From: Gemmatimonadales bacterium
GTDB lineage: Bacteria; Gemmatimonadota; Gemmatimonadetes; Gemmatimonadales; GWC2-71-9
Direction of reading: 5' to 3'
Assembly (NCBI GenBank): GCA_025934955.1
Contig: JAICWE010000009.1
Location: 2,913-66,912 of the forward strand
Length of the DNA stretch: 64,000 nt
Part shown: in pieces, positions 19,773 to 34,748 of the stretch
How positions within the stretch are numbered: position 1 is the stretch's first letter
Layout: each line of letters starts with the position of its first letter
Position numbers and translations under genes: made by a program
Notes under the pieces: generated by a model
What the model was told of the DNA's origin: nothing
Seen by the model: only the letters and a program-made list of their open reading frames with translations
The model's database searches: none

Positions 19773-20423
19773 ATGGATCCGGCGCGGCTGTTCGCGGCGC
19801 GACCGTCCACCCGCGCGGAGGAGATCGCCAACGCGCTGAGTCACGGGCTCGGCCTGGCGGCGAGCGCGGCGGCGCTTCCGCTGCTGCTGGCCACCGCCCT
19901 CCGGCACGGAGGGTGGAGCGGCGTCGGCGCCGGCGTGTTCGCGGCGAGCGTGGTACTGCTCTATCTCGCCTCCACGCTGTACCACACGGCCCGCAGGCCG
20001 CGGGCGCGGCGGGTGCTCCAGCGGGTCGATCACGCGGCGATCTACCTGCTGATCGCCGGCACCTACACGCCGTTTCTGCTCGGGCCGCTGCGCGGCGCGT
20101 GGGGCTGGACGCTGCTCATCGCGGTGTGGACGGTGGCGCTCGGGGGGCTCGCGCTCAAGGCGACGGGGCGGCTCCAGCATCGCGGCCGTTCGCTGAGCCT
20201 GTACCTCGGACTCGGCTGGCTGGCGGTAGTGGCGGTGGTGCCGCTCTGGCGCGCGCTGCCGGGCTCGGCGCTCCTCTGGCTCGCCGCCGGCGGGCTGGCC
20301 TATACTGCGGGCGTGCTCTTCTTCGCACTCGAGCGGATGCGATTCGGGCACCTGGTGTGGCACGGCTGCGTGCTGGCGGGCACCGCGTGTCACTACGTCG
20401 CCGTCCTGCGATACGCCGCCTGA
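19773..20423 (+). CDS. hemolysin III / PAQR family channel protein
   Basis: EEIANALSHGLG, ASTLYH, VDHAAIYLLIAGTYTPF, seven TM segments, HLVWHGCVLAGTACHY. Confidence 0.9.
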   Translation: MDPARLFAARPSTRAEEIANALSHGLGLAASAAALPLLLATALRHGGWSGVGAGVFAASVVLLYLASTLYHTARRPRARRVLQRVDHAAIYLLIAGTYTPFLLGPLRGAWGWTLLIAVWTVALGGLALKATGRLQHRGRSLSLYLGLGWLAVVAVVPLWRALPGSALLWLAAGGLAYTAGVLFFALERMRFGHLVWHGCVLAGTACHYVAVLRYAA

Positions 20424-20484: not shown

Positions 20485-21750
20485 ATGCCCGCCCCCAATC
20501 CAGCCGTCGTCCCGCCGCGCGCCCGGCACCCGTGGGTCTGGGCGGTGCTGTACTTCCCCTACGGCCTCACCTTCGGCTTCCCGGCCATCGCGCTCGGGTA
20601 TCTCGCCGGGCGCGCCGGCGTCGCCACCTCGGCGGTCGCGGGGATGGTCGGAATGGCGTTCCTCGCCGCCGGCTGGAAGTTCGTCTGGGCGCCGTTAGGC
20701 GACTACACCCTGTCGCGGAAGCGCTGGTACCTGCTGGCGGTCGCGGCGGTGTCGGCGGGGTTCGTCGCGCTTACGGCGCTGCCGCTCTCGTCGCGCACCG
20801 TGCCGCTGGCCGGCTTCCTCGTGCTGGTCTCCGGCGTCGCCGCCACGTTCCTCGCCTTTGCGACGGAAGGGCTGATGGTGCACAACACGCCGGCCGCGCA
20901 GCGCGGCCGGGCGGCGGGATGGTTCCAGTCGGGCAACCAGTTCGGGCAGACGGCGGGCGGCGGCGTCGGGCTCTGGCTCATCCACCACTCGCCCTCGCCG
21001 TGGATGGCGGGCATCGGGCTCACGGCGATCATCGGTGCCTGTGCGCTGGCGCTCCGCGGGCTGGAGGAGCCGCCGCGGCCGCTGGCCGGGGCGTCGTTCG
21101 GCGCGCGCATCGCCGATGTGGGCCGCGAGCTCGGCGGCGTGCTCCGCTCGCGGGCGGGGCGGGTCGGGCTGCTCCTCGCCATCCTGCCGATCGGCACGGC
21201 GGCGGCGCAGTTCCTCTTCGGCGCGCTCGGCCCCGAGTGGCACGCGTCGGCGGATACCGTCTCGTTCGTGCTCGGCGCGGGCGGCGGCCTCGCGATCGTC
21301 ACCGGCTGCTTCGCCGGCGGGCGGCTGGCCGACCGCATCGCCAAGACCCGGGCCTACGCAGTCGCCTGCGCGCTCATGATCCTGGCGTGCGTGGCGCTCG
21401 CGGTCTCGCCCCGGACCGAGGCCGGGTATGCCGCCGCGACGCTGTTCTACATCTTTGCCAACGGGATGGGCGCGGCGTCGTTCACGGCACTGGTGCTCGC
21501 GATCATCGGCGACAGCGCCGCCGCTACCAAGATCAACCTCTTCTTCGCGCTCAACACGCTGTTCAGTCTCGGCATGCTCCGGGTGGATGGCTGGGCGCAC
21601 GACGCGTGGGCGACGAACGGGATGCTGTACACCGAGGCGGGAGCGGGCGTGCTCGCGCTGGTGGTGTTCGCGGCGCTGGCTCCGGCGCTCCGGGGAACCG
21701 CCGGGGTAGCGGCCACCCGCCCGGCCGAGCGGGCGGCGGGTGCGGTGTAA
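20485..21750 (+). CDS. MFS transporter
   Basis: 421 aa, about 12 hydrophobic helices. The ORF is clean relative to the Arg-rich overlapping frames. Subfamily not assigned (possibly AmpG-like). Confidence 0.8.
   Translation: MPAPNPAVVPPRARHPWVWAVLYFPYGLTFGFPAIALGYLAGRAGVATSAVAGMVGMAFLAAGWKFVWAPLGDYTLSRKRWYLLAVAAVSAGFVALTALPLSSRTVPLAGFLVLVSGVAATFLAFATEGLMVHNTPAAQRGRAAGWFQSGNQFGQTAGGGVGLWLIHHSPSPWMAGIGLTAIIGACALALRGLEEPPRPLAGASFGARIADVGRELGGVLRSRAGRVGLLLAILPIGTAAAQFLFGALGPEWHASADTVSFVLGAGGGLAIVTGCFAGGRLADRIAKTRAYAVACALMILACVALAVSPRTEAGYAAATLFYIFANGMGAASFTALVLAIIGDSAAATKINLFFALNTLFSLGMLRVDGWAHDAWATNGMLYTEAGAGVLALVVFAALAPALRGTAGVAATRPAERAAGAV
20693..20701 (+). repeat. CGTTAGGCG 9-mer copy 5
   Basis: In the MFS CDS, CCG-TTA-GGC-GAC (P-L-G-D). 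Confidence 0.9.
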
Positions 21751-22000: not shown

Positions 22001-22173
22001 CCAACTCCAACGGTGTAAGTAGCTGAGAGCGGGCGGCTTAGATCACCCCGGCGCGGCCAGCACATCGCGGTCGCGGCGGGATTTTGCGTTGCCGGCGCGC
22101 CGCCACTACCTTTGCCGCGCCCGCCGCCGCGGAGGCGCGGTCTCGGCGGACGGCCTCTACCGTGGAGCATGCG

Positions 22174-22926
22174 TTGAAGATCGCGGTCTGCATCAAGCGG
22201 GTGCCCGACATGGACCTCCGCTTTTCCATCGCCCCCGACGGCCGGTCGCTGCTCGAAGCCGGCCTCAAGTACGACATCAGCGACTTCGACGGCTACGCGG
22301 TGGAGGTCGGCCTCCGCCTGGTGGAGAAGGCCGGCCAGGGCGAAGTCGTCGTCATCTCCCTCGGCCCCGACGGCGTACAGGAAACCATGCGCAAGGCGCT
22401 CGGCATGGGCGCGCACCGCGCGGTGCAGCTCAAGACCGACGCGATCCCGTTCGACGGACTGGTGATCGCCCGCGCGCTCGCCGACGAGCTGCGCGGCGGC
22501 GGCTACGACCTCATCCTCTTCGGCCGCGCCGCCACCGACACCGGGAACGGCGCCGTCGGCCCGATGGTCGCGCAGCTCCTCGACCTGCCCTGCGTGAGCG
22601 CCGTCTCCCGCCTCGACATCGCCGACGGCCGCGGCTCGGCCGATCGCCAGCTCGAGAGCGCCACCGAAACGGTCGAGTTTCCCCTCCCCGCCGTCGCCAC
22701 TATAGATGAAGGGATCGCGCGGGCGCGGCTTCCGTCGCTCAAGGGCATCATGGCGGCCAAGAAGAAGCCGCTGGAGGTGAAGCCGGTGCAGCTCGCCCAA
22801 GGGCAGCTCACCGTACAGCGCATGGAGCTGCCGCCGGAGCGGTCCGGCGGCCGGATCGTGGGCGAAGGTGCCGCGGCGGTGCCCGAGCTGGTGCAGCTGC
22901 TCCGGACCGAAGCGAAGGTGCTCTAA
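22174..22926 (+). CDS. etfB: electron transfer flavoprotein subunit beta
   Basis: TTG 22174 gives MKIAVCIKRVPD..., the canonical EtfB N-terminus (alternative GTG 22162). LILFGRAATDTGNGAVGPMVAQLLDLP. The upstream part of ORF 22084 is shadow sequence. Confidence 0.9.
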   Translation: MKIAVCIKRVPDMDLRFSIAPDGRSLLEAGLKYDISDFDGYAVEVGLRLVEKAGQGEVVVISLGPDGVQETMRKALGMGAHRAVQLKTDAIPFDGLVIARALADELRGGGYDLILFGRAATDTGNGAVGPMVAQLLDLPCVSAVSRLDIADGRGSADRQLESATETVEFPLPAVATIDEGIARARLPSLKGIMAAKKKPLEVKPVQLAQGQLTVQRMELPPERSGGRIVGEGAAAVPELVQLLRTEAKVL

Positions 22927-23909
22927 TGGCGAATGTCTTCGCGTTCGCGGAGTCGCGCGGCGGCGAGCTGCGCAAGGTGGCGCTCGAGGCGGTGACCGCC
23001 GCCCGCGCCGCGGCCGACGCGCTCGGCGGCGAGGTGCACGCGCTCCTGATCGGCGCGCCCGGCATCGGGGCGAAGGCCGAGCGGCTGGGCCGCGCGGGTG
23101 CGGACGTCGTGATCGTCGTGGAGCATCCCGCGCTCGAGCGCTACAGCCCCGAGGTGTTCACCGCGACCGCCGCCGAGCGGATCGGGAGCGGCGGGTACCG
23201 GCTGGCGGTGTTTCCGGCGTCGGCCGAGGGGCGCGACCTCTCGCCTCGCGTCGCGGCCGTACTCGGCGTGAGTCTCGCGTCAGACCTGGTGAGCTTCGAG
23301 CTTCAGGGCGATGCCGTGGTCGGCCGGCATCCGACGCACACGGGGAAGGTCGTCACCACGGTCCGCTTTACCGGCACGCCGGCCGTCGTCTCGCTCCGGC
23401 CCGGCGCGGTGCCGGCGGCGGAGTCGCCGCGGGCCGGCCGAGTGGAGCAGGCGGCGCCGGCGCTCGATCCGGGGGCGGCCAGGGTTCAGGTCACGGCGCT
23501 CACCAGTCGCGCCGGCACCAAGCTGGACCTGGGCGAGGCCCCGGTGATCGTCGCCGGCGGCCGGGGCCTCCGCGAGGCCGCCAACTTCCGGCTGGTCGAG
23601 GAGCTGGCTGACGCTTTCGGCAACGCGGCGGTCGGCGCCACCCGCGCGGTAACCGACGACGGCTGGCGGGACCCGTCGACCCAGATCGGGCAGACCGGCC
23701 GCATCGTGAGCCCCAACCTCTATGTTGCGGTCGGCATCTCTGGCGCGATCCAGCATCTCGCCGGCATGCGCACCGCCCGCACCATCGTCGCCATCAACCG
23801 GGACAGGGACGCACCGATCTTCAAGGTCGCCGACTACGGCATCGTCGGCGACCTCTTCGAGGTCGTTCCCCGTCTGACCGAGGAAGTGCGCAAGCTCCGC
23901 GAGCACTGA
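22926..23909 (+). CDS. etfA: electron transfer flavoprotein subunit alpha
   Basis: VIVAGGRG..., [42 protein letters not shown]. The start abuts the etfB stop. Confidence 0.95.
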
Positions 23910-24014: not shown

Positions 24015-25775
24015 ATGGCACGCAACGCGTCGCGCGTCCTGGTGGACACGCTGATCGCCTGGGGTATCGACACCGTGTTCGGCCTGCCGGGTGACGGGAT
24101 CAACGGCATCATGGAGGCACTGCGCGAGCGGAAGGACGCCGTTCGCTTCATCCAGGTGCGGCACGAGGAGGCGGCGGCGTTCATGGCCTGCGCCCACGGC
24201 AAGTACACCGGCCGGCTCGGCTGCTGTCTCGCGACCTCGGGCCCCGGCGGCATCCACCTGCTGAACGGGCTGTACGACGCGAAGCTGGACCAGGTCCCGG
24301 TCGTCGCCATCACCGGCCAGACCTTCTCCGATCTGCAGGGGAGCCGGTTCCAGCAGGAGATCAACATGACGCTCCTGTACGAGGACGTGAGCGTCTACAA
24401 CCAGGAGCTGATCAACCCCGACCAGATCGAGATGCTGGCCGACGAGGCGTGCCGCCGCGCGCTCAACAATCGCGGCGTCGCCCACTTGAATCTCCCGGTG
24501 GATTATCAGGAGGCGGAGCCGTCGGGCAAGGGATCGATGCACCGGGTCCCCGGCTTCACGGACGCGAGCTGGACCCGCGCGATCACGGTCCCGCCGGAGC
24601 GGCAGCTCGCCCACGCCGCCGAGGTGCTGGGCTCGGCGAAGCGGCCGGTGATGCTGGTGGGACAGGGCGCGTTAGGCGCGCGCGAGGCGGTCATCGCGGT
24701 CGCCGACCGGCTCGGCGCGCCCATCGTCAAGGCGCTGCTGGGCAAAGGCGTCGTGCCGGACGATCACCCGCTCACCACCGGCGGCCTCGGCCTGCTGGGC
24801 ACCGCGCCGTCGCAGGAGGCAATGGAAGACTGCGACGCGCTGCTGATCGTCGGCTCGTCATTCCCCTACATGGAGTACCTGCCGAAGCACGACCAGGCGG
24901 TCGGCGTGCAGATCGACGACAAGGCCGACCGGATCGGACTGCGCTACCCGGTGCGCGTCGGGCTGGTGGGCGACGCGCGCGCGACGCTGGAGGCGCTGCT
25001 GCCATTCCTGCCGGAGCAGACCGACCGCACCTGGATCGCGCGGGCGCAGCAGGCCATGGTCGAGTGGTGGTCGCTGATGGAGGAGCGGGAGTCGCGCGAC
25101 GGCGCGCCGATCAAGCCGCAGCGAGTCGCGCGGGAGCTGGATGCCCTGCTCTCCGACGACGCCATCATCTCCACCGACTCGGGCACCATCACGACCTGGG
25201 TCGCGCGGCACGTACGGCTTCGCGGCGAGCAGCAATTCAGCTGCTCCGGCACGCTCGCGACGATGGCGCCGGGGCTGCCGTACGCCGTGGCCGCGCAGCT
25301 CGCCTATCCCGACCGGCAGAGCGTCGCGTTCGTGGGCGACGGCGGCTTCACCATGCTCATGGGCGAGTTCGCCACCGCGGTGAAGTACGACCTGCCGATC
25401 GTGGTCGTCATCATCAAGAACAACACGCTGGGCCAGATCAAGTGGGAGCAGATCGTCTTCCTCGGCAACCCCGAGTACGGCTGCGAGCTCCAGCCGATCG
25501 ACTTCGCGAAATACGCCGAGGCGTGCGGCGGCGTCGGCATCTCGGTGGAGCGGCCGGAGGAGCTTCGGCCCGCGCTGGAGCGTGCCTTCGCCTCGCGCCG
25601 GCCGACGGTGGTCGAGGTGCTGGTGGATCCGAACGAGCCGCCGATGCCACCCAAGATCTCCGCGAAGCAGGCGCTGCACTTCGCCGAGGCGCTGGCGAAG
25701 GGCACGCCGGGCGGCGGGCGGATCGCGCTCACGCTGTTCCGCGACAAGCTCAGCGAGATCATTCCGTCCAAGTAG
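24015..25775 (+). CDS. poxB: thiamine-diphosphate-dependent pyruvate oxidase / pyruvate dehydrogenase (quinone), PoxB-like
   Basis: VFGLPGDGINGI, HEEAAAFMA, SGPGGIHLLNGLYDA. ThDP motif GDGGFTMLMGEF...VVVIIKNN. 586 aa. Confidence 0.85.
   Translation: MARNASRVLVDTLIAWGIDTVFGLPGDGINGIMEALRERKDAVRFIQVRHEEAAAFMACAHGKYTGRLGCCLATSGPGGIHLLNGLYDAKLDQVPVVAITGQTFSDLQGSRFQQEINMTLLYEDVSVYNQELINPDQIEMLADEACRRALNNRGVAHLNLPVDYQEAEPSGKGSMHRVPGFTDASWTRAITVPPERQLAHAAEVLGSAKRPVMLVGQGALGAREAVIAVADRLGAPIVKALLGKGVVPDDHPLTTGGLGLLGTAPSQEAMEDCDALLIVGSSFPYMEYLPKHDQAVGVQIDDKADRIGLRYPVRVGLVGDARATLEALLPFLPEQTDRTWIARAQQAMVEWWSLMEERESRDGAPIKPQRVARELDALLSDDAIISTDSGTITTWVARHVRLRGEQQFSCSGTLATMAPGLPYAVAAQLAYPDRQSVAFVGDGGFTMLMGEFATAVKYDLPIVVVIIKNNTLGQIKWEQIVFLGNPEYGCELQPIDFAKYAEACGGVGISVERPEELRPALERAFASRRPTVVEVLVDPNEPPMPPKISAKQALHFAEALAKGTPGGGRIALTLFRDKLSEIIPSK
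24670..24678 (+). repeat. CGTTAGGCG 9-mer copy 6
   Basis: In the PoxB-like CDS, GCG-TTA-GGC-GCG (A-L-G-A). Confidence 0.9.
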
Positions 25776-25782
25776 GCGTGCG

Positions 25783-28700
25783 ATGACCATCACTCTTCCC
25801 GTTCTCGATCACGCCGGCGTCCTCGAGGCGCCGGAGTCGCCGATGCCCGGCGCCGCCGAGCGCAACGCGATCGCCGCGGAGCTGCGGCGCGCCGTGCGCG
25901 GCGAAGTGCGCTTCAGCGACGGCGACCGCGCGATGTACGCCTCCGACGCCGGCAACTACCGGCAGGTGCCGATCGGCGTCGTGCTCCCGCGCGACGCGGC
26001 CGACGTGCTGGCGACGCTCGAGGTCGCACGGCGGCACGCGCTGCCGATCGGCGCGCGGGGCGGCGGCACCGGCATTCCGGGGCAGACGGTGAACCGCGCG
26101 CTGATGCTCGACTTCTCCAAGTACATGAATCGCATCGTGGCGCTCGATTCGGGAGGACGCAGCGCGCAGGTCGAGCCCGGTCTCGTGCTGGACGAGCTGC
26201 GCGACGCCGCCGGCCGCTTCGGTCTCACCTTCGGCCCCGATCCGGCGACCCACAGCCGCTGCACCCTCGGCGGGATGATCGGCAACAACTCCTGCGGCAT
26301 CCACTCGGTGATGGCGGGCGAGACGGTCGATAACGTGGACGCGCTCCGCGTGGTCACCTACGACGGCACCGTGCTCGACGTCGGGGCCACTGACGACACG
26401 GCGTACGAGCGGATCGTACGGCGTGGCGGGCGCGACGCGGAGATCTACCGCGGCCTCCGCGCGCTGCGCGACCGCCACGCCGACCTGATCCGCCGGAGCT
26501 TCCCCGACATCCCCCGCCGCGTCTCCGGCTTCAACCTGCCGGAGCTGCTGCCGGAGAAGGGCTTCAACGTCGCCCGCGCGCTGGTCGGCACCGAGGCGAC
26601 GTGCGTGCTGGTGCTGCAGGCGACGGTGAGGCTGGTGCCGAATCCGCCGGTGCGCTCGCTCCTCGTGCTCGGCTACGACGACATCTTCGCCGCGGCGGAC
26701 GACGTGGTCGCACCGATGGAGTTCGGGCCCATCGCGCTGGAGGCGCTGGACGACGCCTTCTTCGACGACATGCGGCGGAAGGGCATGCACCCGCCGCACT
26801 CCGACATGATGCCGGCGGGGGGCGCGTGGCTGCTCATCGAGTTCGGCGGCAGCGACAAGGCGGAAGCCGACGCCAAGGCCCACCGCCTGATGGACGCGCT
26901 CAAGCAGCGGACGCGCCCGCCATCGGCCAAGCTGTTCGACAACCCGGCGGAGGAGCGCCACGTCTGGCACCTGCGTGAGGAGGGGCTCGGCGCAACGGCG
27001 AAGGTGCCGGGTGAGCCGGACAATCACGAAGGGTGGGAGGATGCGTCGGTGCCGCCGGCGCGCCTCGGTGGTTATCTGCGCGACTTCAAGAAGCTGCTCG
27101 ACGAGTATCAGTACAGCGGGCCGCTCTACGGCCACTTCGGCCAGGGCTGCGTGCACACCCGGCTCGATTTCGATCTCATCACCGCCGCGGGCATCGCGAA
27201 GTTCCGGCGCTTCGTCTACGAGGCGGCCGACCTCGTGGTGCGCTACGGCGGCTCGCTCTCGGGGGAGCACGGCGACGGCCAGGCTCGCGGCGAGCTGCTG
27301 CCGCGGATGTACCCCCCGGAAATCATGGAGGCGTTCCGCGAGTTCAAGTTGATCTGGGATCCGGCGTGGCGGATGAATCCGGGCAAGGTGATCGAGCCCG
27401 CGCGGGTGGACGAGCACCTGCGACTCGGCACCGGCTTCGATCTCCCCGAGCCGACGACGCACTTTGCCTTTCCCGACGACGGCTTCAGCTTCGCCGAGGC
27501 GAGCGAGCGCTGCGTCGGCGCCGGGGTCTGCCGGCGCCACGGCGGGGGCACCATGTGTCCGAGCTACATGGTCACGCGGGAGGAGAAGCATTCGACCCGC
27601 GGCCGCGCCCGCCTGCTGAACGAGATGCTTCGCGCCGATCCGCTCGAGGGCGGCTGGCACAGCGAAGCGGTCCGCGAGGCGCTCGATCTCTGCCTCTCCT
27701 GCAAGGGCTGCAAAGGCGAGTGCCCGGTGCAGGTGGACATGGCGACGTACAAGGCGGAGTTCCTCTCGCACTACTACGAGGGCCGGCTCCGCCCGCGGAC
27801 GGCGTACACCATGGGCCGCATCGAGCGGTGGGCGCGGCTGGCGTCGCTCGCGCCGGAGCTGGTGAACGCCGCCACCCATGCGCCGCTGCTCGCCACGTTG
27901 GCGCGGCTCGGCGCCGGCGTGCACCCGGCGCGCACCATCCCGCGCTTCGCGCCGGACACCTTCAAGAGCTGGTTCGCGCGCCGCGGCCGACCCGCGCAGA
28001 AGGCGACGCGCGGCCCCGTTCTCCTCTGGGCCGACACCTTCAACAACTTCTTCCACCCGAGCACCGCCGCCGCCGCGGTCGAGGTGCTCGAGGCGGCGGG
28101 ATTCCACGTGCAGGTCGCGCGGCGGCACCTCTGCTGCGGGCGGCCGCTGTACGACTGGGGCATGCTCGACGCGGCGAAGGCGCACCTGGTCGAAATTCTC
28201 GGCGCGCTCCGGAAGCCGATCGAGGCCGGCGTGCCGATCGTCGTGCTGGAGCCGAGCTGCGCCTCGGTGTTCCGCGACGAGTTGCACCAGTTCTTTCCCC
28301 GGCATCAGGACGCGCGGCGATTGCGGGAGCAGACCTTCCTCCTGAGCGAGCTGCTGGCCGATCACGCGCCGGACTACGCGCCGCCTCCACTCAAGCGGAA
28401 GGCACTGCTCCACGGCCATTGCCATCACAAGGCGATCATGAAGCTCGACGCCGAGGAGGCGCTGCTGCGCCGGATGGGCGTGGAGCTCACGGTTCCGGAC
28501 ACCGGCTGCTGCGGCATGGCCGGCGCGTTCGGCTTCGAGCGCGAGCACTACGACGTGGCGATGCGCTGCGGCGAGCGGGTGCTGCTCCCCGCGGTGCGCG
28601 AGACAGCGGGCGACACGCTGGTGATCACCGACGGCTTCAGCTGCCGGGAGCAGGTGGAGCAGGCGACCGGGCGGGTGCCGCTCCACCTCGCGCAGGTGAT

Positions 28701-28884
28701 GCGGATGGCGCTGCGCGAAGGACCGAGCGGCCCGTCCGGTGAGCGGCCGGAGCGCGACTACCTGCGGCTGCCGCGCTCGCGGCGGGCCAACCTCCGCGCC
28801 GGGCTCCTCGCCGGCGCGGGCGTCGCGCTCGCCGGCGCGGCCATCGGCGCGCTCGCCGGCCGCGCGCGGAGCGGCCGGCGGTGA
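25783..28884 (+). CDS. FAD-binding and (Fe-S)-binding oxidoreductase (GlcD-like FAD domain fused to GlcF/HdrD-like CCG domains; YdiJ-like D-2-hydroxyacid dehydrogenase)
   Basis: ATG 25783 within ORF 25582..28884. FAD_binding_4 (RGGGTGIPGQ, GGMIGNNSCGIHS). FAD-oxidase C-domain (GSLSGEHGDGQAR). 4Fe-4S motif CLSCKGCKGECP. Two CCG motifs (HLCCGRP, DTGCCGMAGAFG). C-terminal hydrophobic tail. 7 nt after the poxB stop. Confidence 0.9.
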   Translation: MTITLPVLDHAGVLEAPESPMPGAAERNAIAAELRRAVRGEVRFSDGDRAMYASDAGNYRQVPIGVVLPRDAADVLATLEVARRHALPIGARGGGTGIPGQTVNRALMLDFSKYMNRIVALDSGGRSAQVEPGLVLDELRDAAGRFGLTFGPDPATHSRCTLGGMIGNNSCGIHSVMAGETVDNVDALRVVTYDGTVLDVGATDDTAYERIVRRGGRDAEIYRGLRALRDRHADLIRRSFPDIPRRVSGFNLPELLPEKGFNVARALVGTEATCVLVLQATVRLVPNPPVRSLLVLGYDDIFAAADDVVAPMEFGPIALEALDDAFFDDMRRKGMHPPHSDMMPAGGAWLLIEFGGSDKAEADAKAHRLMDALKQRTRPPSAKLFDNPAEERHVWHLREEGLGATAKVPGEPDNHEGWEDASVPPARLGGYLRDFKKLLDEYQYSGPLYGHFGQGCVHTRLDFDLITAAGIAKFRRFVYEAADLVVRYGGSLSGEHGDGQARGELLPRMYPPEIMEAFREFKLIWDPAWRMNPGKVIEPARVDEHLRLGTGFDLPEPTTHFAFPDDGFSFAEASERCVGAGVCRRHGGGTMCPSYMVTREEKHSTRGRARLLNEMLRADPLEGGWHSEAVREALDLCLSCKGCKGECPVQVDMATYKAEFLSHYYEGRLRPRTAYTMGRIERWARLASLAPELVNAATHAPLLATLARLGAGVHPARTIPRFAPDTFKSWFARRGRPAQKATRGPVLLWADTFNNFFHPSTAAAAVEVLEAAGFHVQVARRHLCCGRPLYDWGMLDAAKAHLVEILGALRKPIEAGVPIVVLEPSCASVFRDELHQFFPRHQDARRLREQTFLLSELLADHAPDYAPPPLKRKALLHGHCHHKAIMKLDAEEALLRRMGVELTVPDTGCCGMAGAFGFEREHYDVAMRCGERVLLPAVRETAGDTLVITDGFSCREQVEQATGRVPLHLAQVMRMALREGPSGPSGERPERDYLRLPRSRRANLRAGLLAGAGVALAGAAIGALAGRARSGRR

Positions 28885-30104
28885 GTGCGGACCGGCGTGC
28901 GCGGGTCGCCGACGCGCTGCGCGACGCCGGGCTCGATGCGGTCGTCGCGGCGCTGCCGGCGAACGTGCTGCTGCTCACCGGCTACTGGCCGGTGATCGGG
29001 ACCGCCGTCGCGGTCGCGACGGTCGAGGGTCAGGTCGGCGTGGTGATCCCGCCGGACGAGCGCGACCTCACTGCTGCCGCCTGGACCGACGTCATCAGCG
29101 AGCTGCCGCCGTCGCGGCGGGGTGACGGACGCAGCGTGCCGGAGCTGCTCGAGGGCCCGCTGCGGCTCCTGCTCGGCCGGCTCGGCGTGGGCGGCGGGCG
29201 CATCGGCATCGAGAGCGGACCGGTCGAGATGCCGACGTCATACGTCGGCGCGTGGCTCTATGGCGACACGCTGCGCACCATCCTCGAGCGGCTGCTCCGC
29301 TTCGCCACGACGATGCCGGCGGCCGACGTGCTGGCGCGGCTCCGGTCGCGCCCGGTGCCGCTCGAGCTGGATCGCATCCGCCGCGCGGCGGCCGTCGTGG
29401 GCGGCGCGTACGACGACGGCGCCCAGATGATCGCGCCGACGATGACGGAGGCGGAGGCGGCCGCGGGGTTCCGCGCCGGGCTCGAGCCGCGGGGACTCGC
29501 GGCGGGCGGACTGCGCGCCGGCGGCCTGGTGTCCTGCATGGCGGGACCCGAGTCCGCCGCCGCGTACGGCAGCCATGCGCGCTCGAGTGCGCGGCGCATC
29601 CGGCGCGGCGAGCTGCTGCTGATCCACGGCAACTCCTACGTGGACGGCTACTGGACCGACGTCACCCGCACCTACGTGCTGGGGCAGCCCGGCGCGCGGC
29701 AGCGCGAGCTGTACGACGCGGTGCACGACGCGCGCCGAGCGGCGCTCGGCGCGATCCGCGCGGGCGTCCGCGCAGCCGAGGTCGATACCGCAGCTCGGCG
29801 GGTGATGCAGTCGCGCGGGCTGGGCGATGCCTTCCGGCACGCAACCGGCCACGGCGTCGGGCTCGCGGCGATCAATCACGACGCGGAGCCGCGGCTCGCG
29901 CAGGGCTCGACGGACGTGCTGGAGCCGGGGATGGTGTGCAACGTCGAGCCCGCCGCGTACGTGGACGGCGTCGGCGGCGTGCGCCACTGCGACATGGTCG
30001 TGGTGACGGATGCCGGCGCCGAGCTGCTGACGCCCTTTCACGCATCGCTCGAATCACTGGTGCTCGAGGCGCCGGCGGCGCAGCCGATGGAGGTGCGCGG
30101 ATGA
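28881..30104 (+). CDS. M24 family (Xaa-Pro peptidase/creatinase fold) protein with atypical metal-ligand set
   Basis: GTG 28881 overlaps the upstream stop (GTGA). Pita-bread blocks [50 protein letters not shown]. Confidence 0.8.
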
Positions 30105-31432
30105 AGGTGGGCTTTCCGTTTCCCGGCTATGAGAAGATCGCGCCGGTCGACGTGCCTGATGCCAACCTCATGGGCATCTTCGCACCGAAGGCGTCGGATG
30201 GCGTGAACGAGGCCGCGGTGCTTCGCGACGGCTTCGAGCGGCCGATCGACGCGCCGCGGCTTCGCGATGCACTGCGCGACCGGGTGCAGGGCAACGGCCG
30301 CGTGCTCATTCTGGTGGACGACGGGACCCGCACGACGCCGGTCGCGCGGATGCTGCCGGCGATCTTCGAGGAGCTGAAGGCGGCGGAGATCGGCGACGAC
30401 CGCGTCGCCTTCCTGACCGCGCCCGGCACCCACCGCGAGATGACCGACGCCGAGCTGCGCGAGAAGCTCGGCCCGTTCAAGGCGCGCTGCGCGGTGCACC
30501 AGCATCGCTGGCTCGACGAAGGCACGTTGCGCGACTACGGCCGCACCAGCGACGGCACCCGCGTCACCGCCAACCGGCTGCTGGGCGAGTCGGCGTTCGT
30601 GCTCGGTGTCGGCTCGATCGTGCCGCACCGGGTGAAGGGTTTCAGCGGCGGCGCCAAGATCGCGTTCCCCGGCGTCGCCGGGCGCGAAATGATGGAAAAG
30701 AACCAGTGGGAGGCGTCGCTCCGGATGTCGGAGACGGTGATGGGCGTCGCCGACAACCCGATGCGGCTCCGGATGGAGGAGGCGGCGCGCCTCGCCGGCA
30801 TGCACTACATCGTGAACGTGATCGTCGCCGAGTGCGATCACAGGATCGTCGGCTGCGTCACCGGCGACGTGGTGGCGGCGCACCGCGCGGGCTGCGCCAT
30901 CTCGCGCGAATACAACGGCGCCCGTCTGCCGCGCCGCGCGGACATCGTCATCAGCGACGCGCACCCGGCCGACCGCGACGTCTGGCAATCGGCGAAGGGG
31001 ATCTATTCCGGCACCATGGCGGTGCGTCGCGGGGGCACGCTCATCGTGGTGGCGCCGAATCCCGAGGGCGTCGCGAACAATCATCCGAACCTGCTGGAGA
31101 TCGGTTACCGGCCGCACGACGAGGTGATCCGCATGGTGCGCGAGGGCGAGGTGAAGGACATCGTCGGCGTCGCCATCCTGGGCGACATCGCGCAGATCCT
31201 CGACCACGCCGACTCGATCCTCGTCTCGCCCGGCGTCAGGCGGGAGGACGCCGAGCGGCTCGGCTTCCGCTGGGCGCCGACGACACAGGAGGCGCTGGAG
31301 ATGGGCTTCCTTCGATGCGGCCGCGAGGCGTCGGTCGCGGTACTCCGCTACGGCGGCCACATCCTGCCGATCGTCGAGCACGACGACGAGAGCCATCCGG
31401 AGCGCGGCGCCGAGCGTGGCATCGGCCGATGA
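30101..31432 (+). CDS. LarA-family (DUF2088) nickel-pincer-dependent 2-hydroxyacid racemase/epimerase homolog
   Basis: ATG 30101 (ATGA overlap) in ORF 29252..31432. VLILVDDGTRTTP, LTAPGTHREMT, GSIVPHRVKGFSGGAKIAFPG match the LarA Arg75/His108/His174/Lys184 regions as I recall them. Confidence 0.85.
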   Translation: MKVGFPFPGYEKIAPVDVPDANLMGIFAPKASDGVNEAAVLRDGFERPIDAPRLRDALRDRVQGNGRVLILVDDGTRTTPVARMLPAIFEELKAAEIGDDRVAFLTAPGTHREMTDAELREKLGPFKARCAVHQHRWLDEGTLRDYGRTSDGTRVTANRLLGESAFVLGVGSIVPHRVKGFSGGAKIAFPGVAGREMMEKNQWEASLRMSETVMGVADNPMRLRMEEAARLAGMHYIVNVIVAECDHRIVGCVTGDVVAAHRAGCAISREYNGARLPRRADIVISDAHPADRDVWQSAKGIYSGTMAVRRGGTLIVVAPNPEGVANNHPNLLEIGYRPHDEVIRMVREGEVKDIVGVAILGDIAQILDHADSILVSPGVRREDAERLGFRWAPTTQEALEMGFLRCGREASVAVLRYGGHILPIVEHDDESHPERGAERGIGR

Positions 31433-32628
31433 CGGGGTTCATGTTCGCCACGGGTATCGAGAACAGCTACCCGACGATCGTCTTGCCCGACGGCCGCACC
31501 GAGCGGGTGGACGAGATGGCGCGGACGAAGCATTACCAGCGCTGGAAGGAGGACTTCGCGCTGGTGAAGCAGCTCGGGATCCCGGCGCTGCGCTACGGGC
31601 CGCCGTACTACAAGGCGCACCTGGGCCCGGGCCGCTACGACTGGAGCTTCGCCGACGAGACGTTCGCCGAGCTGGAGCGGCTCGAGATCTGTCCCATCGC
31701 CGATCTGTGCCACTTCGGGGTGCCCGACTGGGTCGGCAACTTCCAGAATCCCGACTGGCCGCACTACTTCGCCGAGTACGCCGCGGCGTTCGCGCGGCGA
31801 TTCCCGTGGGTGCGCTACTACACGCCGGTGAACGAGATCTTCTGCTGCGCGACGTTCTCCGCGCAGTTCGGCTGGTGGAACGAGCGCCTCGCGAGCGACC
31901 AGGCGTTCGTCACGGCGCTCCGGCACATGTGCCAGGCCAACGTGCTCGCGATGGGCGCCATCATCGGCGCGCGCGCCGATGCCACCTTCATTCAGAGCGA
32001 GACGTCGACGTACTACCACGCCGAGGATCCGAGCTGCGTCCGCCAGGCGGCGTTCCTCAACGAGAAGCGGTTCCTCGCGCTCGACTTCACCTACGGCTAT
32101 CCGGTCTCGGCGCCGATGTACGAGTACGTGATGGATCACGGCATGACCCGCGACGACTATCACTGGTTCCGCGAGCACCACGTGAAGGCACATTGCGTGA
32201 TGGGCACGGATTACTACGAGGACAACGAGCAGGTGGTGCGCAGCGACGGCACCCTGCGCCACGCCGGTGAGATCTTCGGCTACTACGTGCTCACCCACCA
32301 GTACTTCGGCCGCTACCGGCTGCCGGTGATGCACACCGAGACCAACTTCCACGAGCCCGGTGCCGAGGCGTGGCTGTTCAAGGAGTGGACCAACATGGTT
32401 CGGCTCAAGGAGGACGGCGTGCCGATCATCGGCTTCACCTGGTACAGTCTCACCGACCAGGTGGATTGGGATACCGCGCTCAGGGAAGACAACGGCCGGG
32501 TGAATCCGCTCGGACTCTGCGATCTCGATCGCCAGCTGCGGCCGGTGGGGCGGGCGTACCAGGAGCTGATCAAGCAATGGCAGGAGATCCTGCCGACCGG
32601 GAGCCTCGTCCTCACCCTCGGCTACTGA
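31429..32628 (+). CDS. glycoside hydrolase family 1-like protein
   Basis: ATG 31429 (ATGA overlap) in ORF 30706..32628. TIM-barrel GH1-like blocks: YYTPVNEI (acid/base NE), VMHTETN (nucleophile TE), GFTWYSLTDQVDW. Confidence 0.75.
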   Translation: MTGFMFATGIENSYPTIVLPDGRTERVDEMARTKHYQRWKEDFALVKQLGIPALRYGPPYYKAHLGPGRYDWSFADETFAELERLEICPIADLCHFGVPDWVGNFQNPDWPHYFAEYAAAFARRFPWVRYYTPVNEIFCCATFSAQFGWWNERLASDQAFVTALRHMCQANVLAMGAIIGARADATFIQSETSTYYHAEDPSCVRQAAFLNEKRFLALDFTYGYPVSAPMYEYVMDHGMTRDDYHWFREHHVKAHCVMGTDYYEDNEQVVRSDGTLRHAGEIFGYYVLTHQYFGRYRLPVMHTETNFHEPGAEAWLFKEWTNMVRLKEDGVPIIGFTWYSLTDQVDWDTALREDNGRVNPLGLCDLDRQLRPVGRAYQELIKQWQEILPTGSLVLTLGY

Positions 32629-32728
32629 CCCGGAGTGTGACCCGAGTCACCGCCGCTCGCGCGCACGCGGGCCTATGCTCGGGCCTTCCCGGCAGGTCCC
32701 TGGCTCTTCAACGAAGGATTGTCTCCCT

Positions 32729-33349
32729 ATGCGTTCGCTCCTTCTCGGCCTCCTCGTCGTCGGCGCCGCAGGCATCGTCCCCAGCATCGCCGCCGCCCAG
32801 GTGGACACGACCGGCCGTCAGCGGACCGATACGACGACGGGCATTCAGCGCGATACCACGGGCATGAGTCGCGACAGTACCAGCTCCATGCAGCGGGACA
32901 CGACCAACCCGACGCAGCGCGACACCGGCAGCATGTCGAATCCGTCGAGCAGCACGACGAATCCGACGCCGAACAGTCCGTCGAGCACGGCCAACCCGTC
33001 CAGCTCGACCAATCCGTCCGGCAACGCGAATCCTTCGGACACCACCGCCGCCGAGAACGGCGGGCGGGGCACGGTGAGCGGCGACTCCGCGGCCGGCTCG
33101 GACACGAATCGGATTCATCGCGACTCCACTCACGTGAATCCGGGGGCGAGCAGCTCCAGCAACTCGAGCAGCTACGACAGCAGCTCGCCCGGCTCTCAGG
33201 CGAGCGATACCAGCATGCATACCAAGCGCAGCAGCAAGCACTGGAAGCACCACAAGCGCTCGTCCAGCTCCGGCACCATGCACCACGACACCAGCAGCGC
33301 GGGCCAGAGCACGAGCCCGTCGCCGAGCGACACGACCAAGCCGCGCTAA
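32729..33349 (+). CDS. exported Ser/Thr/Asn-rich low-complexity repeat protein with basic His/Lys-rich tail
   Basis: ATG 32729 gives the signal peptide MRSLLLGLLVVGAAGIVPSIAAAQ. Then 5 degenerate Q/S-R-D-T-T repeats, NP(S/T) runs and HTKRSSKHWKHHKRSSSSGTMHHD. Followed by a strong terminator. Confidence 0.65.
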   Translation: MRSLLLGLLVVGAAGIVPSIAAAQVDTTGRQRTDTTTGIQRDTTGMSRDSTSSMQRDTTNPTQRDTGSMSNPSSSTTNPTPNSPSSTANPSSSTNPSGNANPSDTTAAENGGRGTVSGDSAAGSDTNRIHRDSTHVNPGASSSSNSSSYDSSSPGSQASDTSMHTKRSSKHWKHHKRSSSSGTMHHDTSSAGQSTSPSPSDTTKPR

Positions 33350-33370: not shown

Positions 33371-33404
33371 GACGGGCCCGCACCCCGGTGCGGGCCCGTC
33401 TTTT
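33371..33404 (+). terminator. rho-independent terminator
   Basis: Perfect 13-bp stem GACGGGCCCGCAC / GTGCGGGCCCGTC (33371-33383 / 33388-33400), loop CCCG, then TTTT. Confidence 0.9.
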
Positions 33405-33548: not shown

Positions 33549-34748
33549 GTGCGCTCCGGTTCCATGCCGCGCAACTCGCTCGCACCCGCGATCATCGCAG
33601 GTACGCTCGCCGCCGTCGTGCTCGCCGCCTGCGGCGGCGAGGGCGGCTCCGCGCCGCTCGGCCCGCGGGCACCGGCCGCGCCATCCGCCGCGTCGCTCGC
33701 CGCCATCATGGTCACGCCGCACACCGATTCACTCGACACCAATCAGACGGTGCAGCTCGCCGCGCGCGGCCGGAGCAGCGCCGGCGACAGCGTGCCGGTC
33801 GTCGTGACGTGGAGCGTGTCCGGCGGCATGCTCGATTCGGCGGCGCGCTTCTCGGCGGCGCTCGACGGCGAGTACACCGTCGTGGCGAAGCACTCGAGCG
33901 GCCTCGCCGACACGGCGCACATGACGGTGAAGGGCAAGGCGCACGCTCCGGCGCCGGCCGGCGCCGAGTGCGCGTCGCCCAGGGCGGGCTGGGTCTGGTG
34001 CGACGACTTCGAGCAGGACCGGCTGGCGAGCTACTACGAGTACATCACCGACGGCGGCAGCTTTCAGCGGGTGAGCGGTGTCGGCAAGGATGGCTCCTAC
34101 GGCATGCGCGCGCACTTCGCCGCGGGACAGGTCTCCGCCGGCGCGCTCCATCTGGCGCTAGGTCGCACGCCGCAGGCGTACTTCCGCCCGGCCGACGCCG
34201 GCACGGCGAACTATCGCGAGCTGTACTGGCGTCTGTACCTGAAGAACCAGGCAGGGTGGATCGGCGGCGGCGGCAACAAGCTGACCCGCGCGACGGTGTT
34301 TGCGTCGTCCACCAGCTGGGCGCAGGCGACGATCGCGCACCTGTGGAGCGGTGGCGCCGGCGACAACTACCTGATCCTCGATCCGGCGCGCGGCACCGAT
34401 GCTGCCGGCAACCTCGTCACCACCACCTACAACGACTTCGCCAATCTTACCTGGCTCGGCCAGGGCCCGGGTGTGACGCCGCTCTTCGATGCCGCGCACG
34501 TTGGCACCTGGCGTTGCGTGGAGGCCCACGTGCGGCTCAACGACGCGGGGCAGTCGAACGGCGTGTTCGAGTTCTGGCTCGACGGCGGGCTCGAGGCGCG
34601 GCGCACCGGCCTCAACTTCCTCGGCTCGTACTCGGCGTACGGGCTGAACGCGGTGTTCTTCGAGAATTACTGGAACGCCGGTTCGCCGGTGGCGCAGGAG
34701 CGCTACATGGACGACATCGTGGTGAGTACCCAGCGGATCGGGTGCTGA
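33549..34748 (+). CDS. lipoprotein with bacterial Ig-like (Big_2) domain and a C-terminal concanavalin/polysaccharide-lyase-like domain
   Basis: Lipobox AVVLAAC. Big_2-like segment IMVTPHTDSLDTNQTVQLAARGRSSAGDSVPVVVTWSVSGG...YTVVAKH. The C-terminal 250 aa are Trp/Tyr-rich; the family call is tentative. Confidence 0.65.
   Translation: MRSGSMPRNSLAPAIIAGTLAAVVLAACGGEGGSAPLGPRAPAAPSAASLAAIMVTPHTDSLDTNQTVQLAARGRSSAGDSVPVVVTWSVSGGMLDSAARFSAALDGEYTVVAKHSSGLADTAHMTVKGKAHAPAPAGAECASPRAGWVWCDDFEQDRLASYYEYITDGGSFQRVSGVGKDGSYGMRAHFAAGQVSAGALHLALGRTPQAYFRPADAGTANYRELYWRLYLKNQAGWIGGGGNKLTRATVFASSTSWAQATIAHLWSGGAGDNYLILDPARGTDAAGNLVTTTYNDFANLTWLGQGPGVTPLFDAAHVGTWRCVEAHVRLNDAGQSNGVFEFWLDGGLEARRTGLNFLGSYSAYGLNAVFFENYWNAGSPVAQERYMDDIVVSTQRIGC

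Follow-up and report, generated by a model that had tools for sequence, protein, structure and literature searches.

The DNA analysed here, called the window throughout, is a stretch of 64,000 nucleotides on contig JAICWE010000009.1 of a soil Gemmatimonadales bacterium, with a G+C content of ~72%. It carries a cluster of genes around a homolog of the lactate racemase LarA, which we name LarA-Q. Pfam and NCBIfam searches gave the physical gene order as thiamine diphosphate (ThDP) enzyme, flavin adenine dinucleotide (FAD)/Fe-S dehydrogenase, M24 protein, LarA homolog and glycoside hydrolase family 1 (GH1)-like protein. The genes and the hairpin that closes the run are as follows:

24015..25775, plus strand: ThDP enzyme gene, 586 aa, from open reading frame (ORF) and domain search
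25783..28884, plus strand: FAD/Fe-S/CCG dehydrogenase gene, 1033 aa
28881..30104, plus strand: atypical M24 gene, 407 aa
30101..31432, plus strand: LarA-Q gene, 443 aa, with Lar_N and LarA_C domains
31429..32628, plus strand: GH1-like gene, 399 aa, with a partial Glyco_hydro_1 match
33371..33400, plus strand: intrinsic-terminator-like hairpin, from stem/loop prediction

A first-pass annotation of this DNA had described a head-to-tail run of five genes, joined by a 7-nt gap and GTGA, ATGA and ATGA overlaps and ending at a strong terminator at 33371. The ORFs and junction sequences confirm this description. The ThDP and FAD/Fe-S genes are separated by 7 nt (TAG-GCGTGCG-ATG), and the three later junctions are overlaps of start and stop codons. 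The hairpin consists of 13 pairs, 11 of them G-C, with a loop of 4 nt and a TTTT tail, and it is the sole terminator-like site between positions 20300 and 34000. The five genes are a real, translationally coupled operon. Chance does not account for their arrangement, since homologs of LarA in five other phyla are surrounded by these genes as well.

LarA-Q contains the domains of the LarA superfamily (Lar_N, 1.4e-40; LarA_C, 4.6e-09; Pfam) and is the only Lar_N protein in this genome. Alignment to Mar2 (6D6Z) and Lactobacillus plantarum LarA (5HUQ/6C1W) showed that the equivalents of Asp72, Arg75, His108, His174, Lys184, Gln295 and Lys298 are all kept, so that the catalytic, tether and carboxylate-binding residues are the same as in the characterised enzymes. 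The motifs APGTHRE and VPHRVKGFSGGAK align with His108 and His174/Lys184 of L. plantarum LarA, and in LarA-Q numbering Arg75, His108, His174 and Lys184 correspond to R77, H111, H176 and K186. The first-pass annotation had reported the regions of His108, His174 and Lys184 as retained, which is correct, but it overlooked the defining feature of the protein. His200, the sole protein ligand of nickel in the characterised LarAs, is replaced by Gln202, whose codon is CAG at 30704-30706.

The substitution is fixed in a large group of proteins. Of the 120 close homologs, which show 63-100% identity, 119 have Gln in the His200 column; in the same set D72, R75, H174, K184, Q295 and K298 are invariant and the His108 equivalent is kept in 119/120. 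His stands at this column in 130 of 132 other LarA-superfamily representatives, and a search of 1.84 billion cluster representatives found Gln confined to the clade of the query. In a maximum-likelihood tree (quick search), the Gln clade is monophyletic, with a Shimodaira-Hasegawa approximate likelihood ratio test value (SH-aLRT) of 97. Because Gln202 is fixed across the close homologs and its clade is monophyletic, it is no sequencing accident. The end branches of full-length clade members measure 0.04-0.35, with 0.78 for the representative P0122, compared with a whole-tree median of 0.89, and such short branches point to strong purifying selection. By its residues and its place in the tree, the LarA homolog represents a new subfamily of LarA proteins that is under strong constraint and does without the nickel-ligand His. 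The sister of the Gln clade is a His-bearing protein of 46% identity whose gene directly follows a ThDP gene, so that the pairing of ThDP and LarA genes is older than the change from His to Gln.

LarA-Q falls into none of the curated LarA homolog (LarAH) families. Its scores were 222.7 bits against a cut-off of 460 for NF033504, and 256 against 500 and 193 against 462 for the malate racemases (NF052593 and NF052595), so that its best NCBIfam LarAH score is 256 bits for a cut-off of 500. The nearest sister clusters are likewise under the curated LarAH cut-offs, and placement in a curated LarAH class was rejected on these scores; none of the characterised classes, among which the first-pass annotation had proposed to place the gene, explains it. 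A LarA clade with Gln at position 200 is not described in PMC7583248 (text and supplements), PMC11770544, PMC12611868, PMC11796402, PMC13524815 or PMC13510736, and the NQWE motif was not found in the part of the PMC7583248 supplement text that was covered. His200 is treated in the literature as part of the signature of the LarA family. A large, conserved and mobile clade that has replaced it raises the questions of how the cofactor is bound and tuned, whether nickel is needed, and how an oxygen-labile cofactor is handled in aerobic soil bacteria.

The fold is that of the known enzymes. An AlphaFold 2 model of LarA-Q, with a predicted local distance difference test score (pLDDT) of 80, gave template modelling scores of 0.83-0.86 to the LarA structures 9EID and 5HUQ in Foldseek, and the two-domain fold is shared with L. 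plantarum LarA (5HUQ/6C1W), Mar2 (6D6Z) and Isosphaera pallida LarA (9EIA). The substrate loop differs. After the second catalytic His, LarA has H-F-F (F175/F176) and Mar2 has H-Y-K, whereas LarA-Q has H-R-V-K (R177-V178-K179). Residues specific to the clade are K179 (elsewhere Ala), R224 (Glu), R292 (Ile/Leu), N320 (commonly Cys), D362 and H420, and the position of Y294 is occupied by Trp. The basic residues K179, R224 and R292, which would lie beside the substrate loop, probably favour a more anionic substrate. Unlike the characterised LarAs, the clade belongs to aerobic soil lineages and has a ThDP enzyme as partner.

We then asked where LarA-Q occurs and which genes accompany it. We collected 73 loci from species-representative genomes, all of them metagenome-assembled genomes (MAGs), and in 63 of them a protein matches LarA with an identity of 50% or more. 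Neighbourhoods were mapped by tblastn with the window proteins; de novo clustering of neighbourhood ORFs was dropped owing to long spurious ORFs in high-GC DNA. Synteny was counted over the 40 loci in which the LarA gene is flanked on each side by 4 kb or more, and a neighbour was a gene within 5 kb. The carriers are Pyrinomonadaceae and other Acidobacteriota, Gemmatimonadales, Phycisphaerae/Tepidisphaerales/Pirellulales, Polyangiaceae, Chloroflexia and Binatia, and LarA-Q is 55-70% identical across Gemmatimonadota, Acidobacteriota, Planctomycetota, Myxococcota and Chloroflexota. The ThDP enzyme is a neighbour in 33/40 loci, namely in all loci from Gemmatimonadota, Acidobacteriota, Chloroflexota and Myxococcota and in 5 of 12 from Planctomycetota. 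The FAD/Fe-S protein follows with 23/40, the M24 and GH1-like proteins with 8/40 each, and EtfA with 4/40; the distance from the module to the upstream EtfB/EtfA genes is 4-5 kb in four Gemmatimonadota loci. The ThDP and LarA-Q genes are translationally coupled or less than 600 bp apart in 40/63 loci, and they are the only near-invariant pair of the module. The GH1-like and FAD/Fe-S proteins were also considered as obligate partners of LarA-Q and rejected, each being absent from many carriers.

The proposal that the partners form a real, conserved functional module is supported. The same partners do recur around the LarA homolog across distant phyla. The pattern indicates horizontal and not vertical inheritance: close relatives of this bacterium are without the module, as LarA-Q was found in 0/40 of the nearest genomes (24 genera from its own family, plus 16 genomes from its order). 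Since these 40 relatives are without LarA-Q and the phyla are intermixed in the LarA tree, the module appears to be a horizontally acquired singleton in this lineage. The arrangement in the window is a mosaic, composed of a sister-type ThDP enzyme (described below), FAD/Fe-S protein, M24 protein, LarA-Q and GH1-like protein.

Other lineages have further genes next to LarA-Q. In Pyrinomonadaceae loci (L009:9366-10004 on the plus strand and equivalents), a gene for a protein resembling Fe/Mn superoxide dismutase (SOD) lies between the ThDP and LarA-Q genes. Its stop codon overlaps the start of LarA-Q, and the Sod_Fe_C domain and DVWEH motif are kept. The SOD-like protein may guard against reactive oxygen from a flavoenzyme or shield an oxygen-labile cofactor. 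In three Phycisphaerae loci (L025:8455-10002 on the minus strand, L029 and L048), a 515-aa DUF362 protein is encoded divergently from LarA-Q and adjoins it. DUF362 and Lar_N are members of one Pfam clan, and the genomes of these three loci have no detectable larC.

The ThDP enzyme has TPP_enzyme_N, M and C domains (Pfam). The first-pass annotation had called it PoxB-like, a description borne out by its best PDB match, E. coli PoxB (3EY9, 1.9e-100), to which it aligns end to end, and by its proximity to pyruvate oxidase; E. coli PoxB and L. plantarum pyruvate oxidase have the same three-domain ThDP architecture. It scores below all equivalog cut-offs, with 657.6 against 724 for PRK08273, 632 against 742 for the pyruvate oxidase PRK08611, and 436.6 against 792. 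Two types of ThDP partner can be distinguished. True PRK08273 proteins (970-1050 bits) accompany LarA-Q in Gemmatimonadales, Phycisphaerae and Polyangia, whereas Chloroflexia, like this window, have a sister type (658-677 bits). By similarity, we assign the partners from Pyrinomonadaceae to the sister type as well, because they are 72-76% identical to the window copy, and in the Pyrinomonadaceae loci that were fetched the sister-type gene adjoins LarA-Q. Homologs at 72-77% identity are numerous, the named ones being mostly from Pyrinomonadaceae. The enzyme of the window is thus best described as a predicted 2-oxoacid oxidase/dehydrogenase of the PoxB/pyruvate oxidase clade, of a "type II" that is sister to PRK08273, and it probably also binds FAD. 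To our knowledge, the PRK08273 family has no assigned substrate, and its linkage to LarA-Q provides a functional handle on it. A second PRK08273 protein (940 bits) is encoded elsewhere in this genome, at C100:1300-3054 on the minus strand (locus L091). It is a solitary gene with sigma-70 on one side and metallophosphoesterase/TamA-like genes on the other, and this context is uninformative.

The FAD/Fe-S protein contains FAD_binding_4, FAD-oxidase_C, Fer4_8 and CCG domains (Pfam), with a GlpC-like C-terminal half. The same fusion of a GlcD-like FAD part, a 4Fe-4S part and two CCG (GlpC/GlcF-like) domains is found in E. coli YdiJ, a D-2-hydroxyglutarate dehydrogenase, and Dld-II type Fe-S D-lactate dehydrogenases share this architecture. 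Unlike YdiJ, the window protein has a conserved C-terminal membrane tail and scores far below the YdiJ equivalog cut-off, which denotes D-2-hydroxyglutarate specificity (493 bits against 1350). The tail is a hydrophobic segment flanked by basic residues and is kept in most orthologs. The earlier description as a membrane-tailed enzyme of YdiJ-like build stands, and the protein can be classified as a putative tail-anchored dehydrogenase of the D-2-hydroxyacid type.

Genes for an electron transfer flavoprotein (ETF) lie just upstream of the operon:

22084..22926, plus strand: EtfB gene (Pfam ETF, 4e-36)
22926..23909, plus strand: EtfA gene (Pfam ETF and ETF_alpha)

The two genes overlap at TAATG, and EtfA is 75% identical to EtfA of another Gemmatimonadales locus (L027). 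For EtfB, the Pfam match begins at residue 56 and the NCBIfam matches at residues 31-32, and the listed TTG start is probably ~30 codons too far 5', with the true start internal. EtfB and EtfA may belong to the same transcript as the five-gene run, because only 105 nt separate EtfA from the ThDP gene on the same strand, with no terminator predicted between them. The combination recalls the lct operon of Acetobacterium woodii, which encodes an Etf (LctBC), a FAD lactate dehydrogenase (LctD) and a lactate racemase (LctF). Both loci unite EtfB/EtfA, a GlcD-type FAD dehydrogenase and a LarA-family racemase. The lct system, in contrast to the present locus, is anaerobic and electron-bifurcating; it includes a canonical His200 LarA and a lactate permease but lacks a ThDP enzyme. 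The dehydrogenase of the present locus is equipped with an Fe-S/CCG module of its own and a membrane tail, and an ETF-quinone oxidoreductase gene is nearby. The best named matches of this oxidoreductase are all from Gemmatimonadales/Gemmatimonadota MAGs (73-79% identity). In a further Gemmatimonadales locus (L011:14591-21299), alternative-complex-III-like genes (cytochrome c7, Fer4_11, NrfD, ActD and cytochrome c) stand directly 3' of the FAD/Fe-S gene, which fits electron delivery to an aerobic quinone-linked chain.

LarA depends on the nickel-pincer nucleotide (NPN), a cofactor made by LarB, LarC and LarE. As the first-pass annotation had stated, no larB, larC or larE lies in the window, nor on the rest of its contig. 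A genome-wide search found all three above cut-offs, with LarC on contig C5, LarE on C98 and LarB on C94, so that the genome-wide absence named in the first-pass annotation as a refutation does not occur. That these genes and a sole LarA homolog would prove the use of NPN was considered and rejected, since relatives without a LarA homolog also keep larC: of 32 genomes from the two closest families, 28 have LarC and none has a Lar_N protein. NPN synthesis was therefore already present in the lineage, which must have some user of the cofactor other than LarA. Genes for NphT-like aldo-keto reductases (AKR) were not found beside the lar genes of this genome; three AKR genes are on other contigs.

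Among the 46 genomes that carry LarA-Q, 43 have LarB, 40 have LarE and 38 have LarC. In three Planctomycetota loci (L025, L051 and L068), larB and larE are inside the module locus itself. The order is FAD/Fe-S, ThDP | LarA-Q, GH1-like, LarB, LarE in L051 and LarE, LarB | M24 ... LarA-Q, FAD/Fe-S in L025. This physical placement is the strongest link between the module and the cofactor. In L068, from a long-read Phycisphaerales MAG (G041), the LarA-Q gene is interrupted by an in-frame TGA and larB is divided over two frames, which reflects either gene decay or homopolymer sequencing errors.

The distribution of larC is different. The six carriers outside Chloroflexia that are without LarC all belong to the class Phycisphaerae. 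They have LarB (6/6) and LarE (5/6), LarA-Q is their sole Lar_N protein, and two of them have larB/larE in the same locus as LarA-Q. Two models, TIGR00299 included, did not detect larC in these six genomes, and a divergent LarC was not found 3' of larE in L051, where only tRNA synthetase, HipA-like and HIRAN genes are present. Elsewhere in the carrier set, LarB or LarE is lost in only 3-9%. The absence of larC in Phycisphaerae may reflect one or a few loss events, as related genomes are not independent. Because both the nickel ligand and the nickel-inserting LarC are lost in these carriers, we considered a nickel-free or differently metallated pincer cofactor for LarA-Q, for example the LarB/LarE product pyridinium-3,5-bisthiocarboxylic acid mononucleotide (P2TMN) without cyclometallation by LarC. 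Counting against it, canonical LarA receives no cofactor label when nickel is withheld (PMC11796402), and we regard such a cofactor as quite unlikely. If it did exist, LarA-Q would be the first LarA-family enzyme with a pyridinium-bis-thiocarboxylate scaffold lacking the Ni-C bond, possibly an adaptation to aerobic life.

The gaps in this record could also be read to mean that the adjacency is incidental, the neighbours being unrelated housekeeping genes and LarA-Q a decaying or non-catalytic relic. The close relatives without a LarA-Q gene, two Chloroflexia carriers without lar cofactor genes and the Phycisphaerales copy with the in-frame TGA would all fit. A relic would hardly keep 55-70% identity over five phyla together with invariant catalytic residues and short branches, and unrelated neighbours would not be expected to recur in different gene orders or, as in the window, to overlap in their start and stop codons. 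This explanation is already disfavoured and seems to us scarcely credible.

The reading that we favour, with middling confidence, is that horizontal transfer brought in a module for 2-hydroxyacid catabolism around LarA-Q, in which a probably polyanionic substrate is racemised, oxidised and decarboxylated. From the genes and residues described above we infer a substrate class, an order of steps and a use of the cofactor. LarA-Q would invert C2 of a 2-hydroxyacid bearing a further anionic group, with a pyridinium-bis-thiocarboxylate cofactor derived from LarB and LarE as the hydride acceptor. The tail-anchored FAD/Fe-S enzyme would oxidise one enantiomer, D by family precedent, to the 2-oxoacid and hand the electrons to the quinone pool, and the PoxB-like ThDP/FAD enzyme would oxidatively decarboxylate the 2-oxoacid. 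The M24 and GH1-like proteins would be lineage-specific accessories, possibly acting upstream on conjugates. The module thus probably feeds a 2-hydroxyacid into respiration. Automatic annotation currently labels these genes "nickel-dependent lactate racemase" and "pyruvate oxidase", and probably conceals in this way an unassigned route of 2-hydroxyacid catabolism, which would be common in Gemmatimonadota, Acidobacteriota and Planctomycetota.

Several observations weigh against this reading. Carriers from Acidobacteriota and Chloroflexia, the group with the sister-type ThDP enzyme, have no FAD/Fe-S ortholog in any part of their genomes, and the three-step funnel is for this reason not universal; the 2-hydroxyacid funnel proposed in the first-pass annotation is supported as one architecture of a broader module, and not as its general form. 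With regard to the cofactor, larBCE are ancestral to the lineage, so that their presence is permissive and not proof of use, and the two Chloroflexia carriers mentioned above have neither larB nor larC nor larE. Papers on LarA count His200 among the NPN-binding residues and find it in all LarAH groups analysed, and without the nickel-ligand His the cofactor chemistry of LarA-Q may differ. The AlphaFold 2 model is unreliable precisely in the cofactor loop, residues 175-214, where the pLDDT is below 60.

A simpler alternative is plain lactate use. LarA-Q would then racemise lactate, the FAD/Fe-S protein would serve as a respiratory D-lactate dehydrogenase of the Dld-II type, and the ThDP enzyme would act as pyruvate:quinone oxidoreductase or pyruvate oxidase, the three together converting L- or D-lactate to acetate (or acetyl-phosphate) and CO2. 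Such a route agrees with the nearest solved relatives of the ThDP enzyme, which are PoxB of E. coli and the pyruvate oxidase of L. plantarum, and with the architecture that the FAD/Fe-S protein shares with YdiJ and the Fe-S D-lactate dehydrogenases. Canonical LarA genes are moreover often adjoined by genes for a FAD dehydrogenase, ETF and lactate permease (PMC7583248, Table S1), and EtfBA are just upstream here. The scores and residues point elsewhere. LarA-Q reaches less than half of the cut-off of the LarA model NF033504, and the ThDP enzyme is below every pyruvate oxidase/PoxB equivalog cut-off. The F175/F176 loop has become R177-V178 followed by K179, and together with R224 and R292 this suggests a substrate more anionic than lactate. 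No lactate permease was found in the window or in the loci with Pfam-labelled genes. Lactate as the substrate is in our judgement a real but minor possibility.

The near-invariance of the ThDP and LarA-Q pair suggested another role for LarA-Q. Instead of acting as a racemase, it could be a hydride-handling partner of the ThDP enzyme that oxidises a 2-hydroxyacid, passes the 2-oxoacid on to this enzyme for decarboxylation and shuttles the hydride elsewhere, with the loss of the His ligand tuning or freeing the cofactor for this role. The close spacing of the two genes, the carriers devoid of a FAD/Fe-S ortholog and the pairing of the His-bearing sister with a ThDP gene are in line with this proposal. 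NphT, an unrelated NPN enzyme, provides a precedent for intermolecular hydride shuttling, and removal of its nickel-ligating His leaves cofactor loading intact while lowering activity (PMC13524815). Nevertheless, both catalytic His residues, the hallmark of a racemase with two-sided proton transfer, are strictly conserved in LarA-Q, and carriers without the FAD/Fe-S protein may employ an unlinked dehydrogenase. We consider a shuttle role unlikely and retain the racemising, oxidising and decarboxylating module as the preferred reading.

The remaining two proteins of the operon were examined for their catalytic residues. The M24 protein matches Peptidase_M24 (5.6e-47, Pfam), and alignment to Deinococcus radiodurans prolidase (5CDL) gave its metal site as His/Asp/His/Glu/Cys, where His249 takes the place of the first Asp and Cys370 that of the last Glu. 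It does not have the Asp, Asp, His, Glu, Glu ligand set of M24 metallopeptidases (prolidase/aminopeptidase P). The syntenic orthologs keep H249 in 10/10 and C370 in 9/10 cases. The GH1-like protein is glycosidase-like, would fall in clan GH-A and is shorter than canonical GH1 enzymes. It matches Glyco_hydro_1 (2e-12) over profile positions 54-238 only, scores 57.9 against 478 in the BGL model, and is matched by beta-glucosidases of the PDB at 5e-12 in its N-terminal half. Ten orthologs all keep N135-E136, the NE motif of the acid/base, as well as E304 within HTETN, which is the candidate nucleophile. Orthologs of at least 49% identity occur in ~17/46 carrier genomes and are multi-copy in Planctomycetota.

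The two proteins had been proposed to release the hydroxyacid from a conjugate. As a general step this did not hold up, each gene standing beside the LarA gene in only 8 of the 40 well-flanked loci. Because the M24 and GH1-like proteins are only accessory neighbours, conjugate release would be at most a lineage-specific addition. In L011:4833-8067 and other Gemmatimonadales loci, genes for a 742-aa GDE_N_bis/mannosylglycerate-hydrolase-like glycosidase and a short-chain dehydrogenase/reductase (SDR) lie between EtfBA and the ThDP gene; such neighbours hint at a link to hydroxyacid glycosides.

Two further genes flank the region:

32675..33349, plus strand: gene for a Ser/Thr-rich protein with an N-terminal hydrophobic segment, following the GH1-like gene
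20485..21750, plus strand: major facilitator superfamily (MFS) transporter gene, upstream (MFS_1, 5.9e-22; similarity to AmpG weak, E 6e-6)

The Ser/Thr-rich protein has no Pfam or NCBIfam match and no homolog in the related loci, and is not conserved with the module. Right after the terminator, a 399-aa ORF at 33549-34748 on the plus strand shows a weak match to Polysaccharide lyase 14 (E 3.7e-4), below the Pfam cut-off. Besides the MFS transporter, the window encodes an acyl-CoA dehydrogenase, a TonB-dependent receptor and the ETF-quinone oxidoreductase mentioned above.

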